A DNA stretch of 64,000 nucleotides from a virus. Lineage: Duplodnaviria > Caudoviricetes. The position numbers and the translations under genes are program-made. The DNA is taken from positions 1-64,000 of IMG/VR virus record IMGVR_UViG_3300033066_001904, one strand, 5' to 3'. The notes beneath the pieces were generated by a model. The model did no database searches, was not told the DNA's origin, and worked only from the letters and a program-made list of their open reading frames with translations. Shown piece by piece: positions 41,301 to 63,701 of this stretch. Within the stretch, counting starts at the first letter, position 1, and each line of letters begins with the position of its first letter.

Positions 41301-41657
41301 AGATGCAATAGAAATATCTGTAATACCAGGCATTGGTCTAATACCTAAGCGATAAGGTTGTCCTGAAGGACTCACGTTAGAGTAAACATCGCTTATATTT
41401 TTTCTAAGATTTCCGTCTTCTTTTAGTATTCCACCTTGTAAAATATATTTTTTAGCTAAAGCACCACCATCATCTTTTACAGGTAATCCATTTTCATCTA
41501 CTTCCGTAACTATATTAACTGCTGAGGTCATTCTAATCCATGAGTTGCGAGAATTTAGGTATTGTAAATTTTGAGGAGTACGATTTACTAATGCATTTTG
41601 ACGTGCATTTATAGAGGCACTAATTGCCGGAATAAATGTATCCTTAAATATGCTCAT
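38355..41657 (-). CDS. Baseplate hub-like protein with C-terminal lysozyme-like domain
   Basis: 1100 aa; C-terminal IIHQNECSLDF..HL.NGDSL...EKYNG.GY...SPYLW resembles COG5526-type lysozymes. Confidence 0.65.
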   Translation of the reverse strand: MSIFKDTFIPAISASINARQNALVNRTPQNLQYLNSRNSWIRMTSAVNIVTEVDENGLPVKDDGGALAKKYILQGGILKEDGNLRKNISDVYSNVSPSGQPYRLGIRPMPGITDISIASKSAYGSLREVTVNFVAWDIRQLEDLELLYMRPGYTVLVEWGWAPYLDSDGSYKTNIQYYDIINQQKPKEQIFKEIFVKATEEYKGNYDACFGYVKNYSWSARPDGGYDCQTHIISLGEVIESLKVNYAPFDLNTSIGTNGILASRLSQINLNSQDLVTEYNKNILAGICYELKEIVYSSTKGKEQLYTINDGGDYYHFFAKNLEVTGQKNTKNTQVYITLESFLKILNKYVLLKDVKGNSPFVSLSDKERKYDKVNQDDKSLLCLAHPLQISTDPSVCLISSPIWQKGFKVSTSTVDDTNLDNLIQFSNTDYTSLINDILYKFYITTFKDSYKQEIITKIKIQTRQNTNEIKEFHKQFQQQKNNLEVVVGGKKLTDVIGQNASLKDFLAYRLSTGQIIEAVGDVRGTLGTINFNYVATVNNPIQEETKALNDAKKSFNDKQSDAYKNLQFLNVLKEFPYFVDNNPYKELGIIGNIFLNVDFLYNLSLNINLSSQDKKEKNEISLYDYLKNTMSEVSQAIGNVSNFDIHVDHIDGMVRIIDINYVDNLSRDEIYKKAFELQVHNLRSTVRNYKLESQIFQEQATIVAIGAQTGGGALGVDSSTLVDFNKKIVDRIIPKKDAPLNTSKDTKTTIEEIKNKLNNLETKLSSLYEYFGNLEQGYVASAKYDINKSSEYKNALKDIIVFFKNITKSDIKNRAIIPTKLSLEMDGIGGLVIGHVFKIPSDILPKGYKGGEVGSRIGYIITGIGGKVANEDWTTSIDAQTIILDNPSGQFIKFEDLVVVENNTLKTKNISDINSQPSVGNIKQLWDSATVNSDKYGELDTLINQMVANKNRYTNIGSQVNTPWYIVAIIHQNECSLDFSKHLYNGDSLQFKTIRYPSGKLVGINPPYTFEQSAVQALKDAEFDKTDFSTIYQQLYALEKYNGLGYRQYGVNSPYLWSYTNQYKAGKFVKDKVFSFEAVSQQPGAAAILKRMKDRGIIN

Positions 41658-41991
41658 GTGTATTTTCTATTTTAACCCTCTTTTTTAAAATACCCCATAT
41701 ATATGCATTATTACTATTCTGCCATTTTCCTAAATTTTCAAAACGAGAATCATTTATCATTTCATCATAAAATTTTTTATCCGTAATATCATTTCCATAA
41801 TATTCTCCATCTCCATTTATTGGAAATATCCGACAATAATATTCTGGGAAATGTTCAGGACCTGGACCTTGACCTCCATCCCAAAAAAATGTATGAATTT
41901 TTAAAAAAACCCCGTCACTTACCTTATATGCCATAAGGAGATTAGGATTATTTATACCAATTTCGGCTAATATGTTTGAAAATTTAATCAT
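41644..41991 (-). CDS. Leader-family protein (MIKFSNILAE|IGINNP), putative capsid-internal protein
   Basis: Shared leader motif. Confidence 0.6.
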   Translation of the reverse strand: MIKFSNILAEIGINNPNLLMAYKVSDGVFLKIHTFFWDGGQGPGPEHFPEYYCRIFPINGDGEYYGNDITDKKFYDEMINDSRFENLGKWQNSNNAYIWGILKKRVKIENTHEHI

Positions 41992-42293
41992 CTAGCACTA
42001 TTAAAATCGTTAAACAGTTTTAAAACAGCATTAAGATCAGTTGGAATTCTTAATTGCGTCCCTGGTTGAGGAAATAACGATCCTCTAGTAACATTATTAT
42101 TAGCAGCCGAAATTATTCTCCACAAAGATGAATCTCCGTAATAATTATAAGCTAAATTATCTAATCGATCTCCAACAGATGTAATAATGTAAAAATCATT
42201 ATTAGACAAAGGTATATTAGGATATAACTTACCTTGATAATAAGGTACTCCTTGATCTGTTTTTTTTATGTCTAGATTAGTATATAAGTTCAT
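41988..42293 (-). CDS. LysM-like baseplate protein
   Basis: GDRLDNLAYNYYGDSSLWRII..AN...PGTQLRIP. Confidence 0.75.
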   Translation of the reverse strand: MNLYTNLDIKKTDQGVPYYQGKLYPNIPLSNNDFYIITSVGDRLDNLAYNYYGDSSLWRIISAANNNVTRGSLFPQPGTQLRIPTDLNAVLKLFNDFNSAR

Positions 42294-42580
42294 TTATTTT
42301 TCTCCCAATAATTTTCTAATGATGTTTTAGTCCACCAATCCCACCCACCTTGATTTTGGGGTAGATCTTTTTTTGGTAAATCTCGTGCACCAATCATTGT
42401 AAGTCCTTTATTATGGACAATTTGTTTTACTTTTTGAGGAGGATTAGTGTCATATAGAGAAAATTCTAAGATATCTCCTTCTTGAATTCTTTCAAATTTT
42501 ACTCCTGGTTTATCTAAGTTCCATGTCTGAGAAGGTTTATTAACACCAATTTCGGCTAATATGTTTGAAAATTTTATCAT
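42290..42580 (-). CDS. Leader-family protein (MIKFSNILAE|IGVNKP)
   Basis: Shared leader motif. Confidence 0.6.
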   Translation of the reverse strand: MIKFSNILAEIGVNKPSQTWNLDKPGVKFERIQEGDILEFSLYDTNPPQKVKQIVHNKGLTMIGARDLPKKDLPQNQGGWDWWTKTSLENYWEKNK

Positions 42581-44475
42581 TGTTTACCTTCGGGAAGTGG
42601 ATTTTTAATTTCATCTAACCAAGGATTAGACCCTTTTGTTCCTTTATTAGCAATATAAGGAGAACTAGCATCTTTTTGTGGTAAATTATTGTGAAGAATT
42701 GTACAAGTTATTGAAACATCAATAATATGAGGCAATTCATACATTTGCACATCAGCTCCATTTTCTGGTTCATCTAAAGCTATCTCCCAAGGAGCATCAT
42801 CAGCTATTGTATATGACAGTGAATTAATAATAGCTGTTTCTCTATATAGATAATTTCCTAAAGTTAGTCTGATCATAGGTCCTCTCATTAGATTATTATC
42901 ATAATCAGGCATCGTATTACTAGCTAGAAAATTTAGTTTTTGATACATTGGTTTCATTTCTTCTTTTGATAGAGCTGCTACTTTAAATGTAAATGAAACT
43001 TGTCGATTAAAACCATTATATATGTTAAATTTTTCTCCTCTTCCTGCATATTTGATAGAACCCCATTCTGGTGAATAGTTATCTTGTATACTTTTTAAAT
43101 AAGCTCTAAATATCATCCATACTGAATCTAAAGGATTATCTGTTCTTATTGCTTCTATTCTGAATTTTATTAAATCCCTAACATTGTGATATTGTCCGTT
43201 TATACTAACTCTAGTTCCGGGTGGTGTAGTGTCAGAAAATAAAGGAGTAAGATTTATTTTGTCTGTTTTTCCACTTCCTACACGTTGTTCTCGAGAAATT
43301 GAATTCCAACTTCCATTAGTTTTTAGTAAAATAACTTTATTATCGGAATTTACATATCCTATATTATCTTGAGGAGTAGAAACATAATTTCCTTGAGCAT
43401 CTATTATTCCAAACTGATTTAATTCTGTACTTCCTGTTATATAATTTTTTTCTCTTAATTTTTTACTATTTATAATATTTTGTAAGGTTTGATAATTAGC
43501 AGGAAGTTTAATATCACTATAAACCTTTTTATCTCCAACTTTTATATTCTCAATATGAGTATTATTGTAGGTAACATTATCTAGATCGTCAGGTTTTTTA
43601 GTAGGTCTATTAGGGTCAATATCTGGTACTGTAGTAAAATATTGTCTAGATACTCCTAATAAATTATAATAGTTTATTTGTCCTTTTTCTGTTGGTTTAT
43701 ATTTGTTAGTAGCGTTATTTGTAAAATCATATCTTCTTATAGTAGTAGTACCAACACCGTAAACAGAATCAGGTCCTCCTATATATTGATTTATATTTAA
43801 TTGTTGGGGTTGAACAGCAGGAACACTAGTTCCAAATACTCCATTAACTATATTTAAGGCTGTATTAGCTACTCCTAAAGCTCCATTAAAAATATTTAAA
43901 CCTGTCTGAGACTGAACAGGATTAATTAATCTAGTAGTTAGATTAACTAATCTATTTTGTCCTTGTTCATTATTATATTTAACTACGGCTTCGTATTTGG
44001 TATTTTCATCTTGTATAGGTAATAAACCGTGACGATTAAAATGACCTCCAAATGCATTAACTGGGATTTGAGCTAAAGTATTTAATCCTAAGTTATATAT
44101 TCTTGTAGGACCTAAGGTATTACTTAAATCACTTAATGTATTTCCAATAAAACCTAATATACCTTGTCCATTACCAATTTGAATTTTTTTAGTTTCAATA
44201 GCTGGATTAGATAATTGTAGTCCTACTTGTTTAGCTAAAAACAAAGGACCTCTAGGAAAATCTGTAAGGAATTTACTCACCCTTAAGGTATCTTCAAGAG
44301 AATGCCCTAAGGCACCTAAGGCGCCTCCTCTTATTAAACCATCGTCAAATACAGGTGGACGATCCTCAGGTATAGCTTTTTGAATATATGGTTGCCCACT
44401 ACTATCACCTCCAGGTTTATCATTTCCGTATTTAAGAGATTTAAGATTAGTCTTTAAATCTAATATTCCAGGCAT
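42577..44475 (-). CDS. Baseplate / tail-tube-initiator-like structural protein
   Basis: Position between tape measure and LysM genes; C-terminal tube-like domain. Confidence 0.5.
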   Translation of the reverse strand: MPGILDLKTNLKSLKYGNDKPGGDSSGQPYIQKAIPEDRPPVFDDGLIRGGALGALGHSLEDTLRVSKFLTDFPRGPLFLAKQVGLQLSNPAIETKKIQIGNGQGILGFIGNTLSDLSNTLGPTRIYNLGLNTLAQIPVNAFGGHFNRHGLLPIQDENTKYEAVVKYNNEQGQNRLVNLTTRLINPVQSQTGLNIFNGALGVANTALNIVNGVFGTSVPAVQPQQLNINQYIGGPDSVYGVGTTTIRRYDFTNNATNKYKPTEKGQINYYNLLGVSRQYFTTVPDIDPNRPTKKPDDLDNVTYNNTHIENIKVGDKKVYSDIKLPANYQTLQNIINSKKLREKNYITGSTELNQFGIIDAQGNYVSTPQDNIGYVNSDNKVILLKTNGSWNSISREQRVGSGKTDKINLTPLFSDTTPPGTRVSINGQYHNVRDLIKFRIEAIRTDNPLDSVWMIFRAYLKSIQDNYSPEWGSIKYAGRGEKFNIYNGFNRQVSFTFKVAALSKEEMKPMYQKLNFLASNTMPDYDNNLMRGPMIRLTLGNYLYRETAIINSLSYTIADDAPWEIALDEPENGADVQMYELPHIIDVSITCTILHNNLPQKDASSPYIANKGTKGSNPWLDEIKNPLPEGKQ

Positions 44476-44478
44476 ATA

Positions 44479-44835
44479 TTAATATCTCCCTTCTTGAGGT
44501 CCTAAATCAGGATATTTTCTTCCGGGTAATGATTTATAAATAGTTGATACTACTGAACCTGGTAAACCTGCTTGGTAGTTATTAGGTGCAATAGGATCTG
44601 TTTCATCCAAATGAGATTCTTCTTTAACAGTTGTATTTCCGTTTTTATTAAAATCTACTAATTTTACATTTGGAACTGAATTAATAGAGTAAGTATTTTG
44701 AAGCTTACTAGCTGCAGGATCTAAATTATTTGTAGAATCTACATATCCCCAATTTGATATAAATTGTTGAGGATTAAATCCATTTCCTTGTAAACTTAAT
44801 GTACTTTTTGTTAGTTGATCTAGTACTGATGCCAT
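44479..44835 (-). CDS. Hypothetical virion protein
   Basis: Structural operon, ATATTTAT upstream. Confidence 0.5.
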   Translation of the reverse strand: MASVLDQLTKSTLSLQGNGFNPQQFISNWGYVDSTNNLDPAASKLQNTYSINSVPNVKLVDFNKNGNTTVKEESHLDETDPIAPNNYQAGLPGSVVSTIYKSLPGRKYPDLGPQEGRY

Positions 44836-44867
44836 GGTTATTGTTATTTTATATAAATATTAAATTT

Positions 44868-46958
44868 TTATGCGGTTTTATAGGAACCTTGTGTTAATAG
44901 GGTACCTACTTTTCTACCATCAAGATTAATAGTAGTATCTTTTTGATATAATCTATCTACAGATGCTTTTACGTCGTTTATTGCTTTTATCATTGGAGAT
45001 AAATCTACACCTGATGAACTTCCTTTATCAAATAAATTAGTACCTGCCACCACTGTATCTTTATTATTTAATGCTATTGCTCCTTCAGGTCCTAGTAGTG
45101 TACGATTTCCATATCCTGGAGAAACAACATCATCTCCTTTAGTTAAATTTTCAATTCCTGCTCCTATTAATCCAATAGCTAATAGTCCTCCTAAAGCTGC
45201 TACAGGATTTAAAAATACAGCTATTGCTCCAACTAATAATGCTATTGTTTTTAATACACCCGCTAATCCTGTAAATGTACCTGTTATAGTGTCAATTAAT
45301 GAATTTAACCATGAAAATGGTTTAGTTATATACGTCACTAAAGATAATATATCCGTTAATAAATCTAATAATTGACCAAATGGTCCTTCTACTAGAGTTC
45401 CTACTATATCTTGTAATTTTAAAATAGCATTATTAAATTTTTCTTGTATATTTTGACGCTCTAAAGCCTTTTTAGCATCTTCTTCATTTAATTGAGCTAA
45501 AGATTTACCCGCTTGTAAAGCTTCTTCTCTACGTCTAAGTTGTTCTGCTAATTGATCTGCTTGTAAGCCAAAAGATTCTGCTAATGCCTTTTGAGCAATA
45601 ACATTCATTTGAGCAAATTTAAAAGCATCAATTCCTTGATTAGCTATTTCTTGTGCTACTCCGGCTATATCACCTCTCAAAGCTAATTCTCTAGCTCTTT
45701 CTAAGTTTAATTGTTTACCTATTAATAATTCAGCTTTTAATTCACTTCCTATTGAAGATTCAAAATCTAATAAATAACTAGAAGTAGATTTAGCTTCATC
45801 TAAAGATTGACCTAATGCTTTTATTTGAGCAACACTTTTAGCAATCAATTCGGGATTATATCCTAAGTTTGCTGTTAGTTGTCCTGATACTTTTGCAACT
45901 TCCGCTAGTGTAGCTTTTAAAGGTAACCCTACTTTATATTGATTTGAAATAGCTACAATTCCTTTAACATATGAATTATAAATAGCTTCTGACGATTTAC
46001 CTGTTAAAATAGATAATCTGTAAAATTGAGCGGCTTCATCGCCAGCTAAACCTACTTGTTTAGTTAATTTAACCTGTGTATTTAATATATCTTCTGAGTA
46101 CTCAGATGTGTAACCAGTCGTTTCACTTATTTGTTTAAACGCATCTACTAAATTAGTTGTAGTAATGTTAATATTAGTTGAATCACGAGCTATTTTTCCT
46201 ATATTATATCTATAGTCGTCAGTATTGGAACCCAATGATTTCCCAATTTCTGTTGATTGAGCTATAAATTTACTTGCTTTATCAACAATAAAACCTAAAG
46301 CTAATGCAGCCCAATTTATGCCTTCTAAAAATCCTTTTATTCCGGCTCCCCATATTTTAAAAACACCACCACCCTCTTTAGCCTTATCAGTCATTGCTTC
46401 CATGGCTTTATCAAGATTAAGAACATCTCCTATAATAGGAATTTTCTTTAATCCTTTAAATATTCCAAAAAGAGGTTGTAACTTTTTAGCAAAAACATCA
46501 AATTGTTTTAATTCTTCTTTTTGTAATTTAATAATATCCTCAATTGTATCTTTTTGTTCTTTTAATAATTCATTAAGATTAGATAATTCTTTTTTTCTTT
46601 TAGAATTAGTTGTTAACTCAATTTCTTTTTGTATAGCAGATATTTGACCTTCTAACGCCTTAGATAAACCTTCTTCAAGTTTTTTAATTTCTTGAGTAAT
46701 TTTTTTACGAGACAATTCACCTTTAATTGCTTTACCAATTATACCATTTGTTCTAAGATAAGCATCCTGGATTTCGTTTATGTGTTTTCTAACACTTTTT
46801 AAAGTTTCATCTGTTCTAGCTTTTATAGATGTATTAATATTCTTTAGTTTAGTCATAATATCACTAGCTGCATCTCTGAAAATTGCAGTTAACGATGATA
46901 ACTCATCTTTAATATCATCAATATCTTGTTTGGGATCTAGGTTAGGATTAATTGCCAT
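44868..46958 (-). CDS. Tape measure protein
   Basis: Helical A/L/K-rich, hydrophobic G/A segments, follows the tail chaperones. Confidence 0.85.
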   Translation of the reverse strand: MAINPNLDPKQDIDDIKDELSSLTAIFRDAASDIMTKLKNINTSIKARTDETLKSVRKHINEIQDAYLRTNGIIGKAIKGELSRKKITQEIKKLEEGLSKALEGQISAIQKEIELTTNSKRKKELSNLNELLKEQKDTIEDIIKLQKEELKQFDVFAKKLQPLFGIFKGLKKIPIIGDVLNLDKAMEAMTDKAKEGGGVFKIWGAGIKGFLEGINWAALALGFIVDKASKFIAQSTEIGKSLGSNTDDYRYNIGKIARDSTNINITTTNLVDAFKQISETTGYTSEYSEDILNTQVKLTKQVGLAGDEAAQFYRLSILTGKSSEAIYNSYVKGIVAISNQYKVGLPLKATLAEVAKVSGQLTANLGYNPELIAKSVAQIKALGQSLDEAKSTSSYLLDFESSIGSELKAELLIGKQLNLERARELALRGDIAGVAQEIANQGIDAFKFAQMNVIAQKALAESFGLQADQLAEQLRRREEALQAGKSLAQLNEEDAKKALERQNIQEKFNNAILKLQDIVGTLVEGPFGQLLDLLTDILSLVTYITKPFSWLNSLIDTITGTFTGLAGVLKTIALLVGAIAVFLNPVAALGGLLAIGLIGAGIENLTKGDDVVSPGYGNRTLLGPEGAIALNNKDTVVAGTNLFDKGSSSGVDLSPMIKAINDVKASVDRLYQKDTTINLDGRKVGTLLTQGSYKTA

Positions 46959-46981
46959 ATGTGTATAAATATTTAAGACTC

Positions 46982-47257
46982 CTATTTTTTAGGAGCCTTA
47001 GCGACATAGTCTGGAGTTATATCTAGTTTATGCACGGGTTTTTTATTTATATTTAATTCTTGTTGTTGTTTTTTTACTTTTTCATTTTGTTCTTCGTAAT
47101 GCTCTTTCAACATATTAAATGTGAATATTCTTAACCAAATAGGCATATTATATATAGTATCCCAATCATATCCTCCTTGTCCATTAAATACTATTTGATG
47201 AATAAGTCTAAATAAATTAAGTCTATATTCCTGCGTCAGGCCAAAAAAAGTTAACAT
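46982..47257 (-). CDS. Tail assembly chaperone, second part (probable frameshift partner)
   Basis: Overlaps the upstream chaperone across a T7 run; YNMPIWLR. Confidence 0.6.
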   Translation of the reverse strand: MLTFFGLTQEYRLNLFRLIHQIVFNGQGGYDWDTIYNMPIWLRIFTFNMLKEHYEEQNEKVKKQQQELNINKKPVHKLDITPDYVAKAPKK

Positions 47258-47966
47258 CTATTGGGATATTTACACCCTCCCCTGTGTAATTTTCATCCTC
47301 TGGCATAAATTTAAGAATAATATCGGGTTGTATTTTTTTATAGTATTCTCTAAAAGCTCTAGAATCTTTTGCTATTAAGTAATTATCTATAAAATCTCTG
47401 ATTGATTTTTGATCTCGCTTTCCCTCTACAGAAGTAATCATATATTTAAGACGAGTAGTTAAATCAAATGAACCTTTAGGAAATGCTTTAGCTAATCCCT
47501 TTAATTCATCCTCTATTTTTTTCTCATCTCCATGAGTTAATAATTTAAATGTTATTTGATTACCGGAGTTAGGTAATTCAAATTTAAATTCGTTCGTTCC
47601 TTTCGTAAATAAACTTTCATCTAACTCTTTAGTTTGTAAAGTTTGTAAATCTATTGTTACTTCTTCATCTTTATATGTGAAACTATAGTCTTTTCCATAA
47701 CCTAATATACGAGCAGCTACTAAGATAGCATTTTTATCCCCCATAACTAAATCATCATAATTAATTTTAGAAACTATTAAAGATTGTAATAATTTATCAA
47801 TAACTGTTCCGTTTTTTATAAAATTTGTATTGGTAAGAATATCTTCCTCGCGAGCCGTCATATATTTCATAGATATAGAACCTGATGATAGCGGATTAGA
47901 CTCGGGGTATACTAGACCTTTTGAGGGCAACATAACTATTTCTGTTGGTAATTTTAATTCAGCCAT
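47223..47966 (-). CDS. Tail/baseplate assembly chaperone (T4 gp26-like)
   Basis: LPSKG..YP, MTAREEDIL, GD.NAILVAAR..GYG; lies between tube and tape measure. Confidence 0.7.
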   Translation of the reverse strand: MAELKLPTEIVMLPSKGLVYPESNPLSSGSISMKYMTAREEDILTNTNFIKNGTVIDKLLQSLIVSKINYDDLVMGDKNAILVAARILGYGKDYSFTYKDEEVTIDLQTLQTKELDESLFTKGTNEFKFELPNSGNQITFKLLTHGDEKKIEDELKGLAKAFPKGSFDLTTRLKYMITSVEGKRDQKSIRDFIDNYLIAKDSRAFREYYKKIQPDIILKFMPEDENYTGEGVNIPIDVNFFWPDAGI

Positions 47967-47992
47967 ATTATATCTTTTGATATAAATATATA

Positions 47993-48217
47993 CTATTCAT
48001 CTTCTTCGTCCAAATTTATATCGAGTCTTTTAAGATCTGATGGACTTTTAGAAACTTCAAAATCATAAACCTCATAAATATCCCCCATATATGACAGTCT
48101 TAATTTAAGATTTTTATTAGGTTCTAATACAAATCCTATAACGGTACATGATGTTTGGTCAGGATCATCTTTCATATATATTGATTGTCCATATTCAAAA
48201 GGGATAGTAACTTTCAT
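47993..48217 (-). CDS. Small hypothetical protein
   Basis: 74 aa, own ATATTTAT upstream. Confidence 0.55.
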   Translation of the reverse strand: MKVTIPFEYGQSIYMKDDPDQTSCTVIGFVLEPNKNLKLRLSYMGDIYEVYDFEVSKSPSDLKRLDINLDEEDE

Positions 48218-48251
48218 ATTAATTGTTTACAATAAATATTTTATAAAGTAA

Positions 48252-48276
48252 AAATGCTCGAATAAATCGAGCATTT
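48252..48276 (-). terminator. Hairpin terminator after the tail tube gene
   Basis: Perfect 10-bp stem AAATGCTCGA/TCGAGCATTT, 5-nt loop. Confidence 0.75.
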
Positions 48277-48296
48277 CTTTTAAATTTAAAATTATT

Positions 48297-48782
48297 TTAG
48301 AAGTTTAATACAGCATAATCAATTGCAAGAGTTAATGCTAATGATATATAACTATCTGCGGCAAAGTCATAATCACCAAAAGTAGCAGTTTTTACATATG
48401 CTCCTTTAAGATGCCATTCTCCAACAACATCCCCTGGAGGTCCAATTATATCAAAAGTTATATCTTTTTTATAAAAATCAGAATAACCGTCTCTACCTGT
48501 TACTGATTCGTGAGCTAAACGAGCCCATTCCATTACGGCTTGAGCACCTGAAGGTGTTATAGGATCATATAATTCAATATTAACATCATTCCATCTAACT
48601 TTACCTTTAACTTTACGATAAACGTTGATATGATCTAATACAATTTCTCCTGCGTCGAATCCTGGAGCTACAACCTTTTTTATCATATATGATGGAATAC
48701 CATCAATATACATTATAAAGCGATTTTGAACTTTAGGCTCAAACGCTGTAAACATTATTTCATTTGGGTTTAATACTGGCAT
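48297..48782 (-). CDS. Tail tube protein (T4 gp19-like)
   Basis: EPK.QNRF, YDPITPSGAQAVMEW, W..KGA; directly after the sheath gene. Confidence 0.9.
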   Translation of the reverse strand: MPVLNPNEIMFTAFEPKVQNRFIMYIDGIPSYMIKKVVAPGFDAGEIVLDHINVYRKVKGKVRWNDVNIELYDPITPSGAQAVMEWARLAHESVTGRDGYSDFYKKDITFDIIGPPGDVVGEWHLKGAYVKTATFGDYDFAADSYISLALTLAIDYAVLNF

Positions 48783-48825
48783 TTTTTAATTATTATTTCT
48801 ATTAATAAATATTATTAATTATGAC

Positions 48826-50547
48826 TTATTGTGGAAAAGTTGCACCAGTAGGAAGAACATTAAAGTCTAATACTATAAATTCAGCTGTTTTAGTTGGTTG
48901 AATATATATTTGTCCTACTAATTGATTTCTATCAATTACATCTGCTGTATTATTAGAATCGTCCATTACCACTTTATAGGCATATAAACCTTGACGTTGA
49001 ACTACTGAATCTAAATATGGGTTTACTTGTGATAGAAATCTATTACGAGTAACTGTTGTATTTTGTTCAAATACTAAATTACGAGCTACTTGTCCTATAA
49101 ATCCTTTAAGATTAATTAATAAACGGCGAACTGAAACTCTATCAAGAGATGTTTGACGTTTTTGTAATGTCTTTTGACCCCATATAACAACTCCTTCACC
49201 AGGAAATGTTGCTAAAGGATTAATATTGGAATTATATAAAGTATCACGATCTGATTGTTGTAGTCTACGTTCAGCTTTTAATACTGATGGAATACCTCCA
49301 CGATTAAGACCTGCTACTGCAAACCATTCTGCTCCTACTTGGTCATTAAATGCGTAAGCTCCTACTACTACTACTGAAGGGGGAACCCATACGGCTTTTC
49401 CTAGATTTGAACTAAATACTTGTACCCAAGGATAATATGCTGCTGCATAATTTGAGGATTGAGCTGATGAGTTATTTGCAGCTGTAGAAATTGCAACCCC
49501 ATACACATCATCATCAACTATTGATATAGAATCACCTCTTCCCTCACAAGTAGAAATTAAAGTTGTCACAGCTCCATGAGTTAATCCTACACCAGGAGCT
49601 ACTAATACATTAAATTGATATTCATCTTTATTACTTAATAAAGCAAAAGCTGCTTGATAGTCTGAAACTCCATATCCCTGAACATTATCAACTATTATAT
49701 TTTCGTTCATTAATTGAGTTTGATCAGTTGGGGCTACTCCACCATTAAAAGAACCACCATATGAACCACTTCCTACAGCTGGTAAAGATCCGCTATATTG
49801 AGTAGATTTATATGAACCATTATTATCAATAGAATCAATTTGAGGTGATACTGCTGAAACTCTAACATATTGTGAAGCATTACCGTATGAACCTGTATAT
49901 GAAACATATGCTGAATCTGTTCCTGTAGCTGCTACATAGGTTGGTTTTTGATCTCCAATTACGCGAGATATAAAATTAGATAAACTTGGATCTAATGATA
50001 AATTAGCCCATGTTTCTAACACATTTTTATTAGAATCATTATCATCTCCACGACGAATTACTAAATTAAAGGTTCCACTACCACTATTTATATTAGTTAC
50101 TTCCCAACGAACATTTGTTGAAGTTCCACTTGATAAAGCCCCACTAACTAAACTACTTGTATTATTCATTATATTACCCCATGAAAGAGTTTCTAATGAA
50201 AAAGCGCTTCCTGTCCCAGAAAGTGTAGGAATAGTAGCGTTTGCATAAGTATTAATATTATTAGAACCACTTATTATACGAGTTATTAATAATGTTTTAC
50301 CACCAGATTGGAAGAATTCTTTTGCTGCTAGAGATGTAAAATATTCATAATAGTAACTTCCACTTTTAAATGTAGAACCAAAAATAGAATCAAATTCACT
50401 ATATGAAGTAACATATGTAGGAATAAGAGGACGCCCTTTTACAGTAGGTCCTACTATAGAAGTTGCGGTTCCTTGAATTCCTTTTTGTACTAAACTTTGA
50501 TCTGACTCATTTAGGAATACACCAGGAGATATTATTTTTTCTGCCAT
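48826..50547 (-). CDS. Contractile tail sheath protein
   Basis: SPGVF..E.D, VGPT..G, YYPW, PPS, GLNRG, INP...F, WGQKT, RV.VRRL. Confidence 0.95.
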   Translation of the reverse strand: MAEKIISPGVFLNESDQSLVQKGIQGTATSIVGPTVKGRPLIPTYVTSYSEFDSIFGSTFKSGSYYYEYFTSLAAKEFFQSGGKTLLITRIISGSNNINTYANATIPTLSGTGSAFSLETLSWGNIMNNTSSLVSGALSSGTSTNVRWEVTNINSGSGTFNLVIRRGDDNDSNKNVLETWANLSLDPSLSNFISRVIGDQKPTYVAATGTDSAYVSYTGSYGNASQYVRVSAVSPQIDSIDNNGSYKSTQYSGSLPAVGSGSYGGSFNGGVAPTDQTQLMNENIIVDNVQGYGVSDYQAAFALLSNKDEYQFNVLVAPGVGLTHGAVTTLISTCEGRGDSISIVDDDVYGVAISTAANNSSAQSSNYAAAYYPWVQVFSSNLGKAVWVPPSVVVVGAYAFNDQVGAEWFAVAGLNRGGIPSVLKAERRLQQSDRDTLYNSNINPLATFPGEGVVIWGQKTLQKRQTSLDRVSVRRLLINLKGFIGQVARNLVFEQNTTVTRNRFLSQVNPYLDSVVQRQGLYAYKVVMDDSNNTADVIDRNQLVGQIYIQPTKTAEFIVLDFNVLPTGATFPQ

Positions 50548-50814: not shown

Positions 50815-50822
50815 AAAATTTT

Positions 50823-55923: not shown

Positions 55924-57191
55924 TATACTAATATATATTTACCTACACTAGTTATTTCATCACTAGTATCAATTGAATATCCTAATGCTCCTGTATTAAA
56001 CATTACTCGAACATCACTTCCTATTTCTTGAAAATCAGAAATATATTGGTTTTCTACAAATTGACCATTAATAAAGAATGTAAAATTATTAAGACTCGAA
56101 CTAGGTAAACCTGATCCACTAGGTGGTTGTGATATGTTTACTCCATTAAAGTAAGCAGTGTCACTACCAGATACATTACTAGTTACTACAGGAATTGAAT
56201 TGTTTAAGTATTGTAAACTTGAAGCCCATACTCCACTTCCACTATAATAATTTGTTATATTATATGTATTATTTATATTAAGGCCATCTCCAATAAATGA
56301 AGTATTTTTAATAGTATTTCCTGTAGATAACTGAGAAGAAGCAACGTATGTTGTTTCAGCGTCACCTACACTCTCTAATCCAAAAACAACTTGAGATGTA
56401 GAATAATACATACTTTTACCAGCAATTTCTTTATTAACACTATCTGGGATAATATAACCATTAACTGTTAAATTAAAATTAGTTCTAACTGTTCTGTCTG
56501 ATCCTTGTTCAATAATATTTGTAACTGAAAAATTGTCTATTTTTGATTTAAAATGAAAACGTTTAAAATCTCCCCAATAAGAATCTGATGCAAATTCTAT
56601 GGATTCTATTAATTTATTATTTTGTTCTATGAAATCTGTAAAAACAATACAATTATATGATATAGTAACGTAATCAGGTACTACACTAACATAAAATTGT
56701 TTATTGGGAACTCTATTATTTAATAAAGAAAATTTATCGTATTGATTTTTTGCGTTATAACGTGTTTCAAAAACTTGAAATAAATGACTTTTATTACCGT
56801 CTAATTTGTTACCTAAATTTCTATTTTTTTCAATAGAATCTCTTTTAAACATAATTAGAGGAGCCATTAATTTACCATTTTTATCCCTATAAAATCCATC
56901 ATTTTGTACAGATTTCCAACGTTCAGGAGATCCATATATTATAGGTACATTAATTAAAGTATTATTTTGAACAACTTGTGGTTTTATCGTATTTTCAAAA
57001 TAAAACATAATAGCCTTATCTATATCCTCTAAACTAATTGATATATCTTGAATATTATCATTTTTTCTTGAAATATCTCTACCCCTATTGTCACTTATAG
57101 GAGGTTTTCCAACAGCCTTTTCATAAGGGACAAAATTTTCTTGTTGTACTTCAACAATGGTTTTAGGAATAGGTTTTAGTTTACGTGGCAT
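55923..57191 (-). CDS. Tail terminator/completion protein (T4 gp15-like) with C-terminal extension
   Basis: DIDKAI..YF, VPIIYGSPERW, PDYVTISY; neck-region position. Confidence 0.65.
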   Translation of the reverse strand: MPRKLKPIPKTIVEVQQENFVPYEKAVGKPPISDNRGRDISRKNDNIQDISISLEDIDKAIMFYFENTIKPQVVQNNTLINVPIIYGSPERWKSVQNDGFYRDKNGKLMAPLIMFKRDSIEKNRNLGNKLDGNKSHLFQVFETRYNAKNQYDKFSLLNNRVPNKQFYVSVVPDYVTISYNCIVFTDFIEQNNKLIESIEFASDSYWGDFKRFHFKSKIDNFSVTNIIEQGSDRTVRTNFNLTVNGYIIPDSVNKEIAGKSMYYSTSQVVFGLESVGDAETTYVASSQLSTGNTIKNTSFIGDGLNINNTYNITNYYSGSGVWASSLQYLNNSIPVVTSNVSGSDTAYFNGVNISQPPSGSGLPSSSLNNFTFFINGQFVENQYISDFQEIGSDVRVMFNTGALGYSIDTSDEITSVGKYILV

Positions 57192-57541
57192 TATTTAAGA
57201 TTTTGTTGACGTAATTTAACGTATTTATCTAAAGTATCTAAATCAGCTTTAGCTAAAGATAATAATTTCATTATAGTTCCAGCTGTTTGTTTAATATTTT
57301 CATCATCGTGGAACATTTTATATGGAGCTAGTTCTGTTCTCATTTTAGACAATTGAGATTTCATTCTACCAAAATTAGCTAAATTTTCAACTTTTTGAAA
57401 TTCAGCTCCGGTACGGGGATCAGTCTCATTTGAACCTAATCTAAAGCCCTTGTCAATTAATTCCTGTTCGGAATCTTTTGCTTTGTATCCACGAGGCATT
57501 TGAGTATATACTTCTCTTACTATTTGTATTAATGTTTTCAT
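57191..57541 (-). CDS. Hypothetical protein with leader-like N-terminus (MKTLIQIVRE)
   Basis: 10-aa N-terminus ending in E. Confidence 0.5.
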   Translation of the reverse strand: MKTLIQIVREVYTQMPRGYKAKDSEQELIDKGFRLGSNETDPRTGAEFQKVENLANFGRMKSQLSKMRTELAPYKMFHDDENIKQTAGTIMKLLSLAKADLDTLDKYVKLRQQNLK

Positions 57542-58143
57542 TATATTTCTATTGTTTTAATAATCTCTACATTTTGTTCAGGAATAACATATAAATATTC
57601 GTCTGACCCGTATGTATGTTTTTCTTTCTCTAATTTCATTAAAGGAAAATATTGTGATTTTTTTAATCTTTTTACATTAAATTCATCAAACCATTCATAA
57701 TATATTTTATTTTTTTCATCATAATGAAAATAAAATTCATTATCTATTTGAATTACGTTTTCAGATTCCCACACACTAAGAATTTCTTTTGGATATAATA
57801 CAGCTCTAATTTTATTAGGTATATTTACACCAATTTCATCTAATTTACCAACAATTTGAATTTGAGATTTAGGAATAATTAATAATATTCTATTACCATC
57901 CTGATATTTTTTAAACCATTTTTTTAAAATATTACTATCACCCTCATACTGATCATAAGTATAATAATATCCTGGAATACAGTGGGCAGATATTGGTGTA
58001 TTTCCATCAAAGCACAGAATATCAGTATCTTCGCCATAATCTTTTATAAGTATTGTACCGAGTAATTCATTACTTTCATATGCTTTTAACTTATGAGGAT
58101 CGTTAATACCTATTTCACGTAATATATTTTTAAAAGTTATCAT
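57541..58143 (-). CDS. Leader-family two-module protein (MITFKNILRE|IGINDP ... LDE|IGVNIP)
   Basis: Leader plus an internal copy after E103. Confidence 0.65.
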   Translation of the reverse strand: MITFKNILREIGINDPHKLKAYESNELLGTILIKDYGEDTDILCFDGNTPISAHCIPGYYYTYDQYEGDSNILKKWFKKYQDGNRILLIIPKSQIQIVGKLDEIGVNIPNKIRAVLYPKEILSVWESENVIQIDNEFYFHYDEKNKIYYEWFDEFNVKRLKKSQYFPLMKLEKEKHTYGSDEYLYVIPEQNVEIIKTIEI

Positions 58144-58679
58144 ATTCTTTGTATAGATAATCCTAGTTTTTCTGGTCTCATATAATGTGCTTCACAAATT
58201 ATTGATAAAGAATTTCCAAAATTATCATTATTTTCTGAATAAGAATATTCTGGTACTTTACCAAAAATAAATTGATTTTCAATTACTCGGTCAACTTCAT
58301 AATAATTTTCATTCCAAACAATCACATCTCCCATTTCAGGAACAACGTTATATGTAAACCCTTTTCCATCAGGTGATAATTCCACACTTAGTGAATTACC
58401 CGCTAAATCATCGCGTAAAAAGCGAAAATTAACGTTTTGAATAATGTCAGGACCTAAGTCATCAGAAGTCACATTTGGATCAGGTCTATCAATTAAACAA
58501 TTGATTAAAACAGGATCTGCGTATGTTTTTGTGCCACTTGCTTCACCATATACATTAGATGTTGTCTTATCTAAAATTATTTTATAATATCCAACTTTTT
58601 GTTCAATAATATTATTTAATAATTCTCGATTAATATGTCTAATTAATGAAATATCTCTTTGATCTCCCCACAAACTCAT
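58140..58679 (-). CDS. Neck / head-closure protein (T4 gp14-like)
   Basis: RELLNNII.Q, NVYGE, FRFLRDDL, PE.GD.I.W. Confidence 0.7.
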   Translation of the reverse strand: MSLWGDQRDISLIRHINRELLNNIIEQKVGYYKIILDKTTSNVYGEASGTKTYADPVLINCLIDRPDPNVTSDDLGPDIIQNVNFRFLRDDLAGNSLSVELSPDGKGFTYNVVPEMGDVIVWNENYYEVDRVIENQFIFGKVPEYSYSENNDNFGNSLSIICEAHYMRPEKLGLSIQRI

Positions 58680-58685
58680 AATTTA

Positions 58686-59045
58686 TTATTTTATATTGTG
58701 TAATATTATTAAAGCATTATTATACCCTAATCCAAGAGTAATGCAATATTTATAAAGATATGGTAAATCAAATGCATCCTCAGCACTATCCTCTACTTCA
58801 AAGACATAAATATCTTTTATAGTAAAATTATCATAATATAATTTAGCATATTTATCATTTTCACTAGGATTTTCTATACTATCTCCTAAATCCTTCATGT
58901 AATATTTATAATTATCATAAAGATATAAATTCTGAATTAAAGCATACCCATCTTGGTCAGAAGTTGTAATATAATCTAAAATTTCCTTTTTAGTTATTGG
59001 TTTATTTATACCAATTTCAGGTAATATGTTTTCAAATTTAATCAA
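58686..59045 (-). CDS. Leader-family protein (TTG start; MIKFENILPE|IGINKP)
   Basis: Shared leader motif. Confidence 0.6.
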   Translation of the reverse strand: MIKFENILPEIGINKPITKKEILDYITTSDQDGYALIQNLYLYDNYKYYMKDLGDSIENPSENDKYAKLYYDNFTIKDIYVFEVEDSAEDAFDLPYLYKYCITLGLGYNNALIILHNIK

Positions 59046-59373
59046 CTTCTATCTTTAATGTGTTTTTGGGAATTCTAATCCAACTATATTCATCACTATC
59101 ATCATCATCAACTATTTTATATTTTATATTATGTTTTTTTACAATATTAATAAAATCATTAATATCTTTTTGATAATTTTCATCACTTTTCTCAAATTCT
59201 ATACTAACTGTATCTGGATTATAATCCTCATTCCACATTCCCGCATATGATTTATCCCCATATGTTATTAAATATTGTTCTGAACCATCTCCTGCAAAGT
59301 CAACAATTGCATTAAAAATTTTATTTGGATTATTAATACCTATTTCACATAATATTTGTTTAAATGTTATCAT
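59038..59373 (-). CDS. Leader-family protein (MITFKQILCE|IGINNP)
   Basis: Shared leader motif. Confidence 0.6.
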   Translation of the reverse strand: MITFKQILCEIGINNPNKIFNAIVDFAGDGSEQYLITYGDKSYAGMWNEDYNPDTVSIEFEKSDENYQKDINDFINIVKKHNIKYKIVDDDDSDEYSWIRIPKNTLKIEVD

Positions 59374-59690
59374 TACATTTCCTTCTTTAAAATAGTTTTA
59401 TATCTTGGCATAAATTGCATTAATCCTTTAATAGGAATTGCTTTCTTTTTTATCAAGTCTATCTCTTCTCGGGGAGTTGAACTTACAACATATTTTACGT
59501 GTAATAAAGCAAATTCCCATTGAGGTGTTTTTTTAGTGTCTAAAAATGAATTTTGTTCTACTTTTACAACTACAACACCTTCTATTGCTCTTAATAAATT
59601 ATATATTTCTACCTTATTAAAACGAGTATCTGTTTTAATTAAAACTTCACATTCAAATAGGTTTAATGCTTCTTTTAATATACTAATCAT
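59373..59690 (-). CDS. Hypothetical protein
   Basis: 105 aa; LRAIEGVVVV ferredoxin-like pattern. Confidence 0.55.
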   Translation of the reverse strand: MISILKEALNLFECEVLIKTDTRFNKVEIYNLLRAIEGVVVVKVEQNSFLDTKKTPQWEFALLHVKYVVSSTPREEIDLIKKKAIPIKGLMQFMPRYKTILKKEM

Positions 59691-60391
59691 TTATATTTCC
59701 ATTTAAAATTTTTAGCAGATTGTATTCTTCCTTTAAGAACTTGACAAAGATGACCATTATCTATCCCTAAACACATTGAAGCTTTTTTAGCACTTTCCCA
59801 TTCACATATAAAATTTCCATTTAAATCATATTGTAAAATAGGTTTTTTAATCCAAACATGATTTTTAAGTTTAAAAGGATTTTCCTTTTTGATTTTAGAA
59901 ATTTTTTCTTTTGTTATATGATATTTTTTACCTTTTTTAGCTTGAGATATTTTTTCTTTTTGTTCTTTGGTAAATTTATATCCTAACGCATACTTATTTC
60001 CTATTTTTGATTGACCTATTTTTTGTTTTCTTTCTTCAGAAAATTTTTTACCTTTATTAGCTTTAGATATTTTTTGTTTTGTTTCTTCACTTTTAGGACC
60101 ACTTCCTCTATCATATATTTCTGTAAATAAAATATTACTTTTATTTACTTTTTCTAAAAAAAATTTTTTCCAATATATTTCTTTTTCATTTAATTCTTCT
60201 TTTGAACATTTTTCTAAAATTTCAAATTGGTGATTTTTAGGGCCATGATTTTTTAAAGAATTATATAATTTTGGACCTATACTAGTTTTATGTAATTTTA
60301 TATAATTATTCCATCTACTTTCAATATTAATAGATTGTCCTATATAAACTTTTTCTGAAGGTGACGTTATTTTATAAATTCCTATACTCAT
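59687..60391 (-). mobile_element. Free-standing GIY-YIG homing endonuclease with NUMOD3/NUMOD1 repeats
   Basis: GIYKITSPSEKVYIGQS, ETKQKISKA repeats, KPILQYD...WKY. Confidence 0.92.
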
Positions 60392-60416
60392 AATAATAAA
60401 TATTTATAATTTTAAT

Positions 60417-61565
60417 CTAAAACACATAAATAGGAAGAGGAATTTGAGAAATAATCTGCTGAACTGACTGTGCTTCAGAAACTTGATTTTCAAGTTGTGT
60501 TTTTCTAGACACCATATCTAATGTTGCTCTAAGTTGTTCAAGTAACTTAGCTTTTTCATCACGAGCATCAGTTAATAAATCTTGTTGATTTAAAGAAACT
60601 TCAGCGCCAGGAATTGGGGTTGTTTGATATTTACCCCTTACATAAGCTAACATTTCCTTAACCAACGCTAAAGCATATTGTCTAATCCATTGTTTACCAA
60701 TTGCATTAAGTTGAGAAAATACTGGGTTTTCATATGGTACATTTCCTATATTTGTTATAAGATCTGTACGTCCATTACTTGAAGCTACTACACTATTTCT
60801 TTCATCAATTAAAATGTAGTGAAATAACAACATTTTATCAATTTCTGGAATTGGAAATATTCTTAATTTATTATTGTGGATGTCAAATGAGAAAGCTGAT
60901 TTACGAATTTGGTCATTTAGTTCGATGGATTGAATTTTTTGGACGTCAAAATATATAGGCATTAGTAAAAAGTTAATGCCTGGTGAAAATTGCCCAAATC
61001 CAAATGATTCTAATAATGATTGAATTCCGGTTCCTGTACCTGCGTATGGATCAAAATATCTAACAATAGCAGGTGGTTCTTCATAAAAAACTCTTTTAAT
61101 TTCTGCTGACCCTGTTATTCCTTTTGCAGCTAATATAGCGTTCAAGTCATAATCTTGAACAGATGCTGTTAGAGCAAAAGAACAAGTATAATAGTTTGTA
61201 TAACCACCAGCACCGGCTTCTGAAGCATAAGTTTCAGATATTCTTATAACTGACCCTAAATTTGGAGTTACTAGTTGATTATTAAATGAAGAGCCTGTAG
61301 AATTACCTTCCATTGAAAGATAATTTTCTCTTACTTTATATTGATAAATTTCGTTACCATAAGTAGTAACAGCTTCTTCTAGAGCAGCATAAAAATTTAT
61401 GTCTTGTAGTTCAATATTGACAATAGGGTACCCTAAACGCTCTGCAGCCCAGCGCGCAAATTGAGGTCCCTCTATTTGATATGAACTATCATTATCATAA
61501 AATCCAAAAGGTGTAGATCCTGATATAGGACCTGCACTACCCGACCATATTGGTATATTAGCCAT
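60417..61565 (-). CDS. Neck / head-tail adaptor protein (T4 gp13-like)
   Basis: RLGYPIVNIEL, WIRQYALAL.KEML..VRGKY...IPG. Confidence 0.8.
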   Translation of the reverse strand: MANIPIWSGSAGPISGSTPFGFYDNDSSYQIEGPQFARWAAERLGYPIVNIELQDINFYAALEEAVTTYGNEIYQYKVRENYLSMEGNSTGSSFNNQLVTPNLGSVIRISETYASEAGAGGYTNYYTCSFALTASVQDYDLNAILAAKGITGSAEIKRVFYEEPPAIVRYFDPYAGTGTGIQSLLESFGFGQFSPGINFLLMPIYFDVQKIQSIELNDQIRKSAFSFDIHNNKLRIFPIPEIDKMLLFHYILIDERNSVVASSNGRTDLITNIGNVPYENPVFSQLNAIGKQWIRQYALALVKEMLAYVRGKYQTTPIPGAEVSLNQQDLLTDARDEKAKLLEQLRATLDMVSRKTQLENQVSEAQSVQQIISQIPLPIYVF

Positions 61566-61590
61566 TAATTAACAGTATTTCGTATAAATA

Positions 61591-62262
61591 TTAAGAATCT
61601 CTATGATCTGAATATATATTTAAAATGTGTTCCACAATAGGATCTCTGTGATTTGTTTTAAGAGTTACAACTCCAAATCCTTCAACAGATGTTAAATTAT
61701 TACATATGAAATTAAAACCAGACATTTTTCTATCTTTAAGATCAATTTGGGCTGTATCTCCACAAATTATCATTCGAGATCCAGAGCATATTCTTCCTAG
61801 TAATAATTCCATTTGTCGATGAGTTATATTTTGACCTTCATCAACAACTACGCAACAATTAGATAAATTTCTTCCACGCATGAATGCTAAAGGAATAACT
61901 TCTATATTACCATCCACAATTTCTTTATCAATTTTTTCTTTATTGTAGAGACGGTACATATTATCGTATATTGCAGCCACATAAGGTGCTAATTTATCGT
62001 CTTTAGTACCTGGTAGATATCCTATTTCTTCACCAGATGTTACTGCTGGTCTTGTTAAAATTATTTTTTCCACTTCACCTTTAAATAGTAAATCAAGAGC
62101 AACTTGGGCTGCAACCATAGATTTACCTGATCCTGCTGATCCTTTTAAAACTGTTATTTTATTTTGGAAAATTACTGACTTAGCTTGTTTTTGTTCGTCA
62201 TTAAGTTGTATTTGAAACCTAATTGGATTTTTCGGAGTGCGCTTATTTTTTTGCTCTTCCAT
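61591..62262 (-). CDS. phoH: PhoH-family ATPase
   Basis: GSAGSGKS, RPAV, G.LPG, LAFMRGR, DEGQN, GD.AQID. Confidence 0.95.
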   Translation of the reverse strand: MEEQKNKRTPKNPIRFQIQLNDEQKQAKSVIFQNKITVLKGSAGSGKSMVAAQVALDLLFKGEVEKIILTRPAVTSGEEIGYLPGTKDDKLAPYVAAIYDNMYRLYNKEKIDKEIVDGNIEVIPLAFMRGRNLSNCCVVVDEGQNITHRQMELLLGRICSGSRMIICGDTAQIDLKDRKMSGFNFICNNLTSVEGFGVVTLKTNHRDPIVEHILNIYSDHRDS

Positions 62263-62279
62263 GTTTGTGGGGTTTTTAT

Positions 62280-63701
62280 TTATATATCTAGCATTTTTAA
62301 ATTTCCTTTTGAATCATAACCAAAATTGTTATTGTGAACATCAATATATTTTTTATTTAAATCTTTTAAAATATTGTGGATAAGAAGATATAATTTTTTA
62401 TATTTTTCAAATAGTTCTGGGTTTTGTTGTGCAAATTCCTTAAATAGATCTTTGTAGTGAGACTTCTCATAATCACCTGCATTGTACCATCCTCTTACTA
62501 AAGCATATGTCCATTCAGCTAAATCATGAGGACTTAAACTATAGTTTAATTTTTTTCTAATAAAATTAGAAATATTTAAAGCATCATCTTTAAAAGTTTC
62601 ATCATCTAATTTTTCTAGAACAACATATTTGTCTGTTATTTTTTCAATTTTTGGAAAGTATTGAGGATATTTTTGAAATATGTTTATCCAATATGATGCA
62701 TTATCTTTCGCTGCTTGATTTCTAAATGTTTTTATTACAAAATTTGGATTTTTTATAAATGGATAAACTTCATGTTCTGAACCATTTTTAGAATTTTTAC
62801 GTTGAATATCTAATTCATTTATATCTAAAAGATCTTTATCTTCATATTTTTCAACATGTTTTTGTAAATCTTGATATAAATTATAAACTTTTAATGACGA
62901 CAAATACTTATCAACCCAATTAAATATGTTATCTTCGTTATATGGTTTATTAAAACCATATTTTCTTAATATATTAAAATATTCACGTGCTCCTGAGGCA
63001 TCACATAATCCACTATGTATTTTATCTTTTATAAGTTGTTTTATTTTTTCATTTATATTAGGATTATTTATACCTATTTCATCTAGTGAATCTTTAAATT
63101 TATTAAATCCTGTGAAATCTACATATTTAGCATCAAATATTATTTCATTTTCATTTATTACCTCGTAAGGTATATGATGCTTCTCTAAAAATTGTACAGC
63201 TGATTCAAAATATTTATCATTCCTAATATGAGTAACACTAAATTTAGAAGGTTTTCCCATATTATAATAACCAAGATAAAAAAACTCTTGATAACCAAAT
63301 TCATCCTCCGGATCTTTAAAATAAAAACATGATCTTTCCTGATTACGTGGTTTCAATATAATGGGAGGTTTATTAACACCTATCTCTTTTAAATTATTAA
63401 CGATCTGAACTCGATCTTTAGGAATACCATATGTAATATAATGTTCAGATTCTTCTAATATTTGACAGTATTTAAAATAGCGCCAATTTGTAAAATTAAT
63501 AACATAATTAGGTTTAACAATGTGTTTACACCAATAACCATGAAATGGTTCACTCTTATTATCTCCATCAAAAAAAAATTCATCATCTATTTTAATAAGT
63601 ATACGATCATTATGATACCAATTATCTTTTTTTACAGCCTTTATTTTTCCTGGTGTATTTACACCTATTTCCTTTAAAATTTCTACAAATTTCAACTTCA
63701 T
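62280..63701 (-). CDS. Leader-family multi-module protein with C-terminal kinase-like domain
   Basis: Three E|IG(V/I)NxP motifs; C-terminal VIK...YIDVHNNN...MLDI. Confidence 0.7.
   Translation of the reverse strand: MKLKFVEILKEIGVNTPGKIKAVKKDNWYHNDRILIKIDDEFFFDGDNKSEPFHGYWCKHIVKPNYVINFTNWRYFKYCQILEESEHYITYGIPKDRVQIVNNLKEIGVNKPPIILKPRNQERSCFYFKDPEDEFGYQEFFYLGYYNMGKPSKFSVTHIRNDKYFESAVQFLEKHHIPYEVINENEIIFDAKYVDFTGFNKFKDSLDEIGINNPNINEKIKQLIKDKIHSGLCDASGAREYFNILRKYGFNKPYNEDNIFNWVDKYLSSLKVYNLYQDLQKHVEKYEDKDLLDINELDIQRKNSKNGSEHEVYPFIKNPNFVIKTFRNQAAKDNASYWINIFQKYPQYFPKIEKITDKYVVLEKLDDETFKDDALNISNFIRKKLNYSLSPHDLAEWTYALVRGWYNAGDYEKSHYKDLFKEFAQQNPELFEKYKKLYLLIHNILKDLNKKYIDVHNNNFGYDSKGNLKMLDI

Follow-up and report, generated by a model that had tools for sequence, protein, structure and literature searches.

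In T-even phages, one targeting leader is carried by diverse, fast-changing, injected internal proteins (IPs; PMC3012670, PMC9026906) that are unrelated among themselves (PMC3012670). The prohead protease of T4, gp21, cuts after (L/I)-x-E, and amber-suppression mutagenesis of the T4 capsid-targeting sequence showed that targeting relies mainly on residues 4 and 7, whereas residues 8 and 10 serve processing (PMC9026906). Alt, a packaged enzyme of T4, is cut by gp21 at I-T-E and L-T-E sites (PMC5694885), and in the giant phages phiKZ, 201phi2-1 and SPN3US paralogous head-packaged ejection or inner-body proteins undergo multiple cuts after Glu by a gp21-related protease (PMC10052503, PMC5694885). 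Here we describe a 16-residue tag, composed of a 10-residue leader (MIKFxxILxE) and a hexapeptide (IG(I/V)NxP), which stands at the N-termini of variable proteins encoded by the viral record IMGVR_UViG_3300033066_001904 and of which a part, including the hexapeptide, recurs inside some of them. The window analyzed, positions 1 to 64,000, covers the first 64 kb of a linear contig of 86.8 kb that has a GC content of 29% and all of its genes on the minus strand. We propose, with a probability of roughly 0.65, that the tag is a capsid-targeting propeptide joined to a protease junction, which loads and frees a variable cargo.

The locus resembles the T4 system of IPI, IPII, IPIII and Alt in its gp21-family protease, in its 10-residue N-terminal putative propeptide ending (I/L)-x-E, in its key positions, of which 4 and 7 are aromatic or hydrophobic and 8 and 10 serve processing (Y4, F7, I8 and E10 in T4; F4, I7, L8 and E10 here), in the use of a single leader on unrelated, fast-changing proteins, and in the presence of enzymes among the cargo, Alt in T4 and here a GNAT domain and a module that is weakly kinase-like (PMC9026906, PMC3012670, PMC5694885, PMC8442874). 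The T4 capsid-targeting sequence quoted in a first-pass annotation of this DNA is the correct one (PMC8442874). Unlike T4, with its three IPs and Alt, the present phage, known from sequence alone, has 13 motif-bearing open reading frames (ORFs) on about half a genome, an invariant hexapeptide past the predicted cut site, a junction that is reused to string together 2 to at least 15 modules, many acidic cargo modules and no cargo homologous to the T4 IPs or Alt, the tagged proteins having no Pfam or PHROG family match at threshold. The proteins of phiKZ, 201phi2-1 and SPN3US differ from the tagged proteins in their cleavage motif ((S/A/G)-x-E, whereas the residue two before the Glu is always Leu or Ile here), in their propeptides, which often exceed 100 residues and are cut for disposal, whereas the leader here has 10-20 residues and the modules look like products, and in lacking a conserved motif on the primed side of the cut. 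What sets the locus apart from the T-even concept is its scale, the constancy of the hexapeptide on the primed side and the recurrence of the junction within multi-cargo chains.

A constant tag on unrelated proteins

The pattern EIG[IV]N.P, run over the full contig, matched 16 times in 13 ORFs and 0 times in base shuffles; nine of the copies lie in the window, for which 30 shuffles gave 0. Each copy sits within a real minus-strand ORF. Twelve of the contig's 16 copies are preceded by the 10-residue N-terminal leader and the others lie at internal module boundaries; in the window, six copies are N-terminal and three are internal (at 57837 in p200, and at 63386 and 63080 in p473). The last nine of the tag's 16 residues recur as the joint between the modules of long chains. 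All six leaders reported in the first-pass annotation were recovered on the minus strand, starting at 41991, 42580, 58143, 59045 (a TTG start), 59373 and 63701. Two sequences that it called weaker relatives also exist, and one of them, MISILKE, ends in a proper (I/L)-x-E, but the other, MKTLIQIVRE, has Val at P3, the residue two before the Glu (P1).

Copy statistics were pooled over the contig and related contigs, giving 24 distinct N-terminal and 23 distinct internal copies. At the N-termini, M1, I2, F4, I7, L8 and E10 are fixed or nearly so and are followed by IG(I/V)NxP; P1 is Glu in 24 of 24 copies, mostly as residue 10 of a leader that spans 10-20 residues, and P3 is Leu in 23 of 24 and Ile in the remaining one. 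The internal copies are free at the positions equivalent to 1-7, have Leu or Ile at P3 in 23 of 23 cases and always Glu at P1, and keep the hexapeptide invariant. Since Leu or Ile stands two residues before 22% of the Glu residues in this proteome, 23 of 23 would be expected by chance with a probability of ~1e-15. When the tag is laid over the T4 map, residues 4 and 7, the targeting positions, are fixed only at N-termini, and residues 8 and 10, the processing positions, are fixed at all junctions. We regard this positional agreement, which was not fitted, as the strongest single argument for both targeting and processing, as far as a comparison of sequences can argue for them.

The DNA of the 30 nucleotides 5′ of the leaders is only 29% identical among copies, synonymous codons vary from copy to copy, identity is at background level immediately past the Pro codon of the tag, and the internal copies are in frame. 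By these comparisons, the tag is kept as protein and not as DNA. The modules that follow it were as divergent as the first-pass annotation had described: with the tag removed, an all-versus-all BLAST sorted them into at least 10 unrelated families.

An AlphaFold2 model of p200 (mean predicted local distance difference test score, pLDDT, of 80) contains two confident beta-rich domains separated by the internal junction. The leader (pLDDT ~50) and the junction residues 103-108 (pLDDT <50) are the lowest-scoring segments of the model, although no columns of the input alignment are more highly conserved, and in the model leader and junction act as an exposed, flexible linear motif. Such flexibility permits cleavage at the junction rather than demonstrating it. 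The tagged proteins have no hydrophobic signal-like stretch, and this, together with the existence of internal copies, ruled out a reading of the leader as a signal peptide. In an ORF of 670 residues outside the window (G000:C1 78826-80838), the full 10-residue leader is followed by Y-T-D-K and no hexapeptide, which indicates that leader and hexapeptide are separable in this genome.

The modules can be described as a family A (~95 residues, beta-rich, with a C-terminal strand IPKxxVxIV), a family B (~80 residues) and others that are mostly singletons, and their predicted isoelectric points range from 4.3 to 10. A shared IP(K/E)xx(V/I)xI-like ending that had been noted for several modules is real and is restricted to the C-terminal strand of family A. 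Chains are built from these units: p200 consists of two family-A modules and has one junction, p473 has two junctions and one degenerate junction, and relatives show the arrangements A-A, A-B and A-B-B. The longest chain was reached through the locus L005, which matches the final 5.4 kb of the contig at 99.8% identity and extends past the contig end into two further tagged genes and an ORF of 2192 residues. This giant ORF is complete in L012 (6597-13175) and contains 14 canonical and three decayed junctions. The overlap of L005 with the contig indicates that the giant ORF belongs to the unassembled part of a near-identical strain, and it ruled out the idea, raised by neighbors in L012 without a match on the contig, that the ORF comes from a different phage.

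Families A and B occur in two forms, as separate genes headed by the full leader and as internal modules preceded by the junction alone. This distribution is consistent with loading by a single leader for each chain and release through a junction for every module. The kinase-like module stands alone in other phages as proteins of 196-214 residues with their own (I/L)-x-E leaders, and the leader-final Glu of these stand-alone relatives aligns exactly with the Glu that precedes the kinase-like module in p473. The internal copies shift the picture from tagged small proteins to tagged small proteins plus multi-cargo polyproteins. RNA viruses, for example the picorna-like viruses, make polyproteins that are cut by their own protease at a constant junction for the purpose of expression. 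The chains described here are alike in placing unrelated modules in a single frame, separated by a short constant motif that suits an encoded protease, and unlike in that cutting would operate within the capsid of a DNA phage and serve the loading of cargo. A literature search found no cargo polyproteins of phage heads.

Few of the modules could be assigned to known families. All tagged proteins of the window and the 2192-residue ORF had no match at threshold in Pfam and PHROGs; tblastn of p473, p409, p182 and p472 against 50,697 deposited phages gave no match; and a near-length homologue search with p473 returned only itself. The p200 model had no convincing match in the PDB and BFVD (Foldseek) or among 48,161 chains (VIA-align), where the best Z was 3.5. 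A tagged ORF of the near-identical strain (L006:3108-3812) carries a GNAT domain (Acetyltransf_1, 24.9 bits with a cut-off of 20.7; Acetyltransf_4, 25.6 bits with a cut-off of 24.3), with a junction and then another module behind it. The final module of p473 has Gly-loop-like, catalytic-Lys-like, D-x-x-x-x-N loop-like and terminal-Asp motifs that are conserved across seven sequences, together with sub-threshold matches to PIP49_C (E = 0.011, in two of the seven) and to SteC kinase (E = 0.26), an atlas cluster that is 17% T7 kinase, and an AlphaFold2 model with a pLDDT of only 57; these features suggest, weakly, that it is protein-kinase-like. One module of the giant ORF contains an HExxH stretch and has a sub-threshold match to a putative metallopeptidase family.

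The first-pass annotation proposed an address tag that is removed by the prohead protease and that loads probable anti-defence or host-takeover effectors. Every computational test that we ran supports the reading as an address tag removed by a protease. For the effector part, one recognizable enzyme (GNAT) and one weakly kinase-like cargo would fit the precedent of T4 Alt without establishing the role.

The head module, its protease and the leaders of relatives

The contig, for which CheckV gave a completeness of ~52%, comes from an uncultured T4-like phage. Among named phages, the closest is immuto, a Flavobacterium myovirus of 160 kb whose tail sheath is 48% identical and whose head and tail modules have their genes in the same order. 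The head module, just outside the window, runs in the order large terminase, gp20-type portal, three ORFs, Peptidase_S77 (gp21-family), a small tagged ORF, an acidic scaffold and the gp23-type capsid protein, and matches to Portal_T4, Peptidase_S77 (E = 8.6e-26) and Gp23 identify it as T4-type. Tagged ORFs make up 13 of the 115 ORFs on the contig and 9.5% of its coding residues, and they are confined to the virion half, where 13 of 55 ORFs (24%) are tagged compared with 0 of 60 in the remaining half, which is devoted to replication and metabolism. The slots on both sides of the protease gene hold tagged genes.

The prohead protease that the first-pass annotation had suggested looking for is this gp21-family S77 enzyme. 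It also matches phrog_207 (E = 1e-51) and the T4 gp21 structure 5JBL (E = 5e-16), and it keeps the GELDHP and SSRG motifs. Several features suggest that it probably follows the T4 rule of cutting after (L/I)-x-E. When the capsid protein is aligned with T4 gp23*, its predicted mature N-terminus coincides with an I-T-E↓G site (arrow, predicted cut). (L/I)-x-E sites on both sides of the protease core are kept in 24 relatives, where they match the presumed self-trimming positions of T4 gp21 (PMC9026906). In the scaffold and in two core-slot proteins next to it (G000:C1 65424-66593, 69130-70359 and 70337-71194) there are 3.2-4.6 (L/I)-x-E sites per 100 residues, two to three times the 1.5 of the proteome and threefold in the scaffold, as expected if these proteins are cut up and cleared from the head. 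The enzyme itself is ordinary, with thousands of relatives at ~70% identity. In its clade, the protease has a C-terminal Cys cluster, with C198, C204 and C207 invariant in 24 relatives, after a conserved L-I-T-E↓I-I site; this part of the enzyme may be a C-terminal propeptide that binds metal.

A profile built from residues 1-40 retrieved only 22 proteins among 1.84 billion representatives; in 18 of these the tag begins at residue 1 or 2, and the remaining four contain it several times. By this search, the tag in its full length of 16 residues occurs in a very narrow lineage only, and the machinery is common. Shorter or different leaders were found in other phages. Two complete relatives of 160-166 kb (L023/G001 and G003) encode an S77 protease and have a near-identical 10-residue leader, with Leu for Phe at position 4, on three and five genes, in each case without the IG(I/V)NxP hexapeptide, and L027 has a quite different 16-residue leader on four genes, likewise without the hexapeptide. 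The tag family described here is two to four times larger than those of L023/G001, G003 and L027, and its junction is a fixed nine-residue unit. In one relative, two genes have the leader followed by I-K-V-F-K-P, which resembles the hexapeptide and may hint at its origin.

Homologues of the kinase-like module in L023, L027 and L029 (E values of 1e-9 to 1e-15) each have the leader of their own genome, and in L023 and L027 the same leader is also found on proteins without detectable similarity beyond it (E > 0.4). In these comparisons, the leader goes with the genome rather than with the cargo, as would be expected of a leader recognized by a partner specific to each phage, for example the scaffolding core. 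Immuto (NC_055915) has its own three-gene leader family (at ~103.8, 117.6 and 118.6 kb; L019-L022), ending in F-L-x-E and then a conserved N-K-L-T. Immuto has been cultured, and its family is an experimentally tractable analogue; no virion proteomics of immuto were found in the literature.

Alternative explanations and what the tag would mean

From the sequence anatomy, the protease gene, the copy statistics and the comparative pattern, we infer a route for the tagged proteins that includes docking, cleavage, head retention and injection. The leader (M-I-K-F-x-x-I-L-x-E) would dock a newly made protein on the scaffolding core of the assembling prohead; the gp21-family serine protease would then cut after the Glu, so that the leader is lost and a mature protein starting with IG(I/V)NxP remains in the head with the DNA. 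Where (L/I)-x-E and IG(I/V)NxP stand between modules, one leader would bring in several cargo modules that are later cut apart. The changeable small modules, among them one or more acetyltransferases and what is probably a minimal kinase, would presumably be delivered with the DNA.

Several points weigh against this explanation. The hexapeptide is invariant on the primed side, yet the capsid protein's own predicted site is without it, T4-type proteases depend on little else than P3 and P1, and no gp21-type protease is known to require such a hexapeptide; to our knowledge, Ile at P1′ is not documented as a T4 cleavage context. Several cargo modules are strongly acidic, in contrast to the basic T4 internal proteins, and the sample is about half (~52%) of a genome. 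Moreover, because an ordinary protease with thousands of close relatives coexists with a tag found in just 22 proteins, the hexapeptide must serve another purpose. It could act as a further signal carried by the mature protein, belong to an extended docking site, or be required if folded cargo is to be cut efficiently. An elaboration that we consider possible but hold only tentatively is a two-part code, in which the leader loads and the newly exposed IG(I/V)NxP would be a second signal, for example for head retention, ordered exit through the tail or stability in the host. Chains of up to ~15 units behind one leader would then fix the loading ratio, giving a programmable set of enzymes and inhibitors.

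One alternative is that the motif is never cut and instead binds a common partner (the capsid interior, the scaffold, the portal or another hub), or is no more than a conserved flexible linker within multi-domain virion proteins, with the chains staying intact. This would account for the invariant hexapeptide, which is not needed for cleavage alone, and it agrees with the lack of specialization of the protease and with the flexible, exposed state of the motif in the p200 model, as is usual for binding motifs. We nevertheless consider it unlikely, since it leaves unexplained why P3 and P1 obey exactly the protease rule at all 23 internal copies, why the extra N-terminal residues match the T4 targeting positions, and why the same modules exist singly as well as fused. 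It is also conceivable that the leader steers cytoplasmic proteins to some other shared machine, for example one for timed degradation, a chaperone or a membrane site, and that its likeness to T4 is convergent. Four to five tagged genes do lie upstream of the terminase amid genes of unknown function, and no cargo matches a known virion protein in Pfam or PHROGs. We give this little credence, however, because no gene outside the virion half is tagged, tagged genes border the protease gene on both sides, the tag fits the positions of the T4 map exactly, a hydrophobic signal-like stretch is missing, and internal copies would make no sense for a purely N-terminal sorting signal.

The sharing of an N-terminal tag by unrelated proteins is also typical of systems with one maturase and many substrates, in which the leader of a ribosomally synthesized and post-translationally modified peptide is recognized by a modifying enzyme such as a radical-SAM/SPASM maturase. 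Such an origin is very improbable here: the 86.8-kb contig, whose record is ~52% complete, has no match to Radical_SAM (PF04055) or SPASM (PF13186), the tag has no conserved Cys, Ser or Thr, and the motif recurs 14 times inside the single 2192-residue protein. Finally, the tag could be a repeat at the level of DNA, a gene-start cassette without peptide function that is spread by recombination or by a neighboring homing endonuclease, and a GIY-YIG gene does lie amid the tagged genes, as it lies beside tagged genes in the relative L003. We rejected the cassette idea on the codon evidence and attach next to no weight to a DNA repeat of any kind, since it is contradicted by the low upstream identity, the differing synonymous codons, the drop in identity after the Pro codon and the in-frame internal copies.

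If the targeting-and-release explanation is confirmed, the capsid-addressing trick of T4 would be an old one, shared widely by distant, uncultured phages of the T4 type that infect aquatic bacteria, and in this phage it would have expanded to nearly a tenth of the coding capacity seen. It would mark ~30 orphan modules as present at the first moment of infection, where anti-defence and takeover functions are expected. The nine-residue junction would be a compact, sequence-defined cassette for loading and release, which might serve for packaging foreign proteins into phage heads, and the hexapeptide past the predicted cut site points to a cargo-handling step that is missing from the T4 model.

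Coordinates and neighboring genes

Table 1. Tagged genes, junctions and associated head genes, in window coordinates unless noted; arrows mark predicted cut sites.
Feature	Position	Strand	Description
p115	41644..41991	(-)	10-residue leader + IGINNP + family-A-like module; between LysM gene and baseplate hub gene; slot empty in immuto
p96	42290..42580	(-)	leader + IGVNKP + 86-residue basic module; slot empty in immuto
p116	57191..57541	(-)	looser leader ending V-R-E; without hexapeptide
p200	57541..58143	(-)	leader + two family-A modules with internal junction between
p200 internal junction KLDE↓IGVNIP	57817..57837	(-)	residues 103-109
p119	58686..59045	(-)	leader (TTG start) + IGINKP + acidic module
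p111	59038..59373	(-)	leader + IGINNP + acidic module
p105	59373..59690	(-)	short leader ending I-L-K-E; without hexapeptide
p473	62280..63701	(-)	11-residue leader + four modules (family A; unknown; family-B-like; kinase-like); directly downstream of capsid gene
p473 internal junction NLKE↓IGVNKP	63366..63386	(-)	motif match
p473 internal junction SLDE↓IGINNP	63060..63080	(-)	motif match
p473 degenerate junction (..INE↓L, E296) and last, weakly protein-kinase-like module	62280..62816	(-)	homologue alignment
gp23-type major capsid gene, 3′ end	63769..64000	(-)	continues to contig 65391
S77 prohead protease	contig 67006-67644, just outside window		Pfam match

The GIY-YIG homing-endonuclease-like gene lies at 59687-60391 of the window, and its copy in L003 (5729-6430) is 39% identical. 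Several of the neighbors of the giant ORF begin with looser (I/L)-x-E leaders, and the neighbors as a whole include (L012:1873-3087 and L012:3109-4212) a protein with a WYL_2-like domain (E = 1e-5, just under the cut-off) and a weak match to a calcineurin-like phosphoesterase. The in-frame translation just 5′ of the p473 start (window 63701-63730) is identical over seven residues to that before the giant ORF (L012 13175-13190), which suggests, from sequence identity, that p473 and the giant ORF have a common 5′ region or regulatory element.

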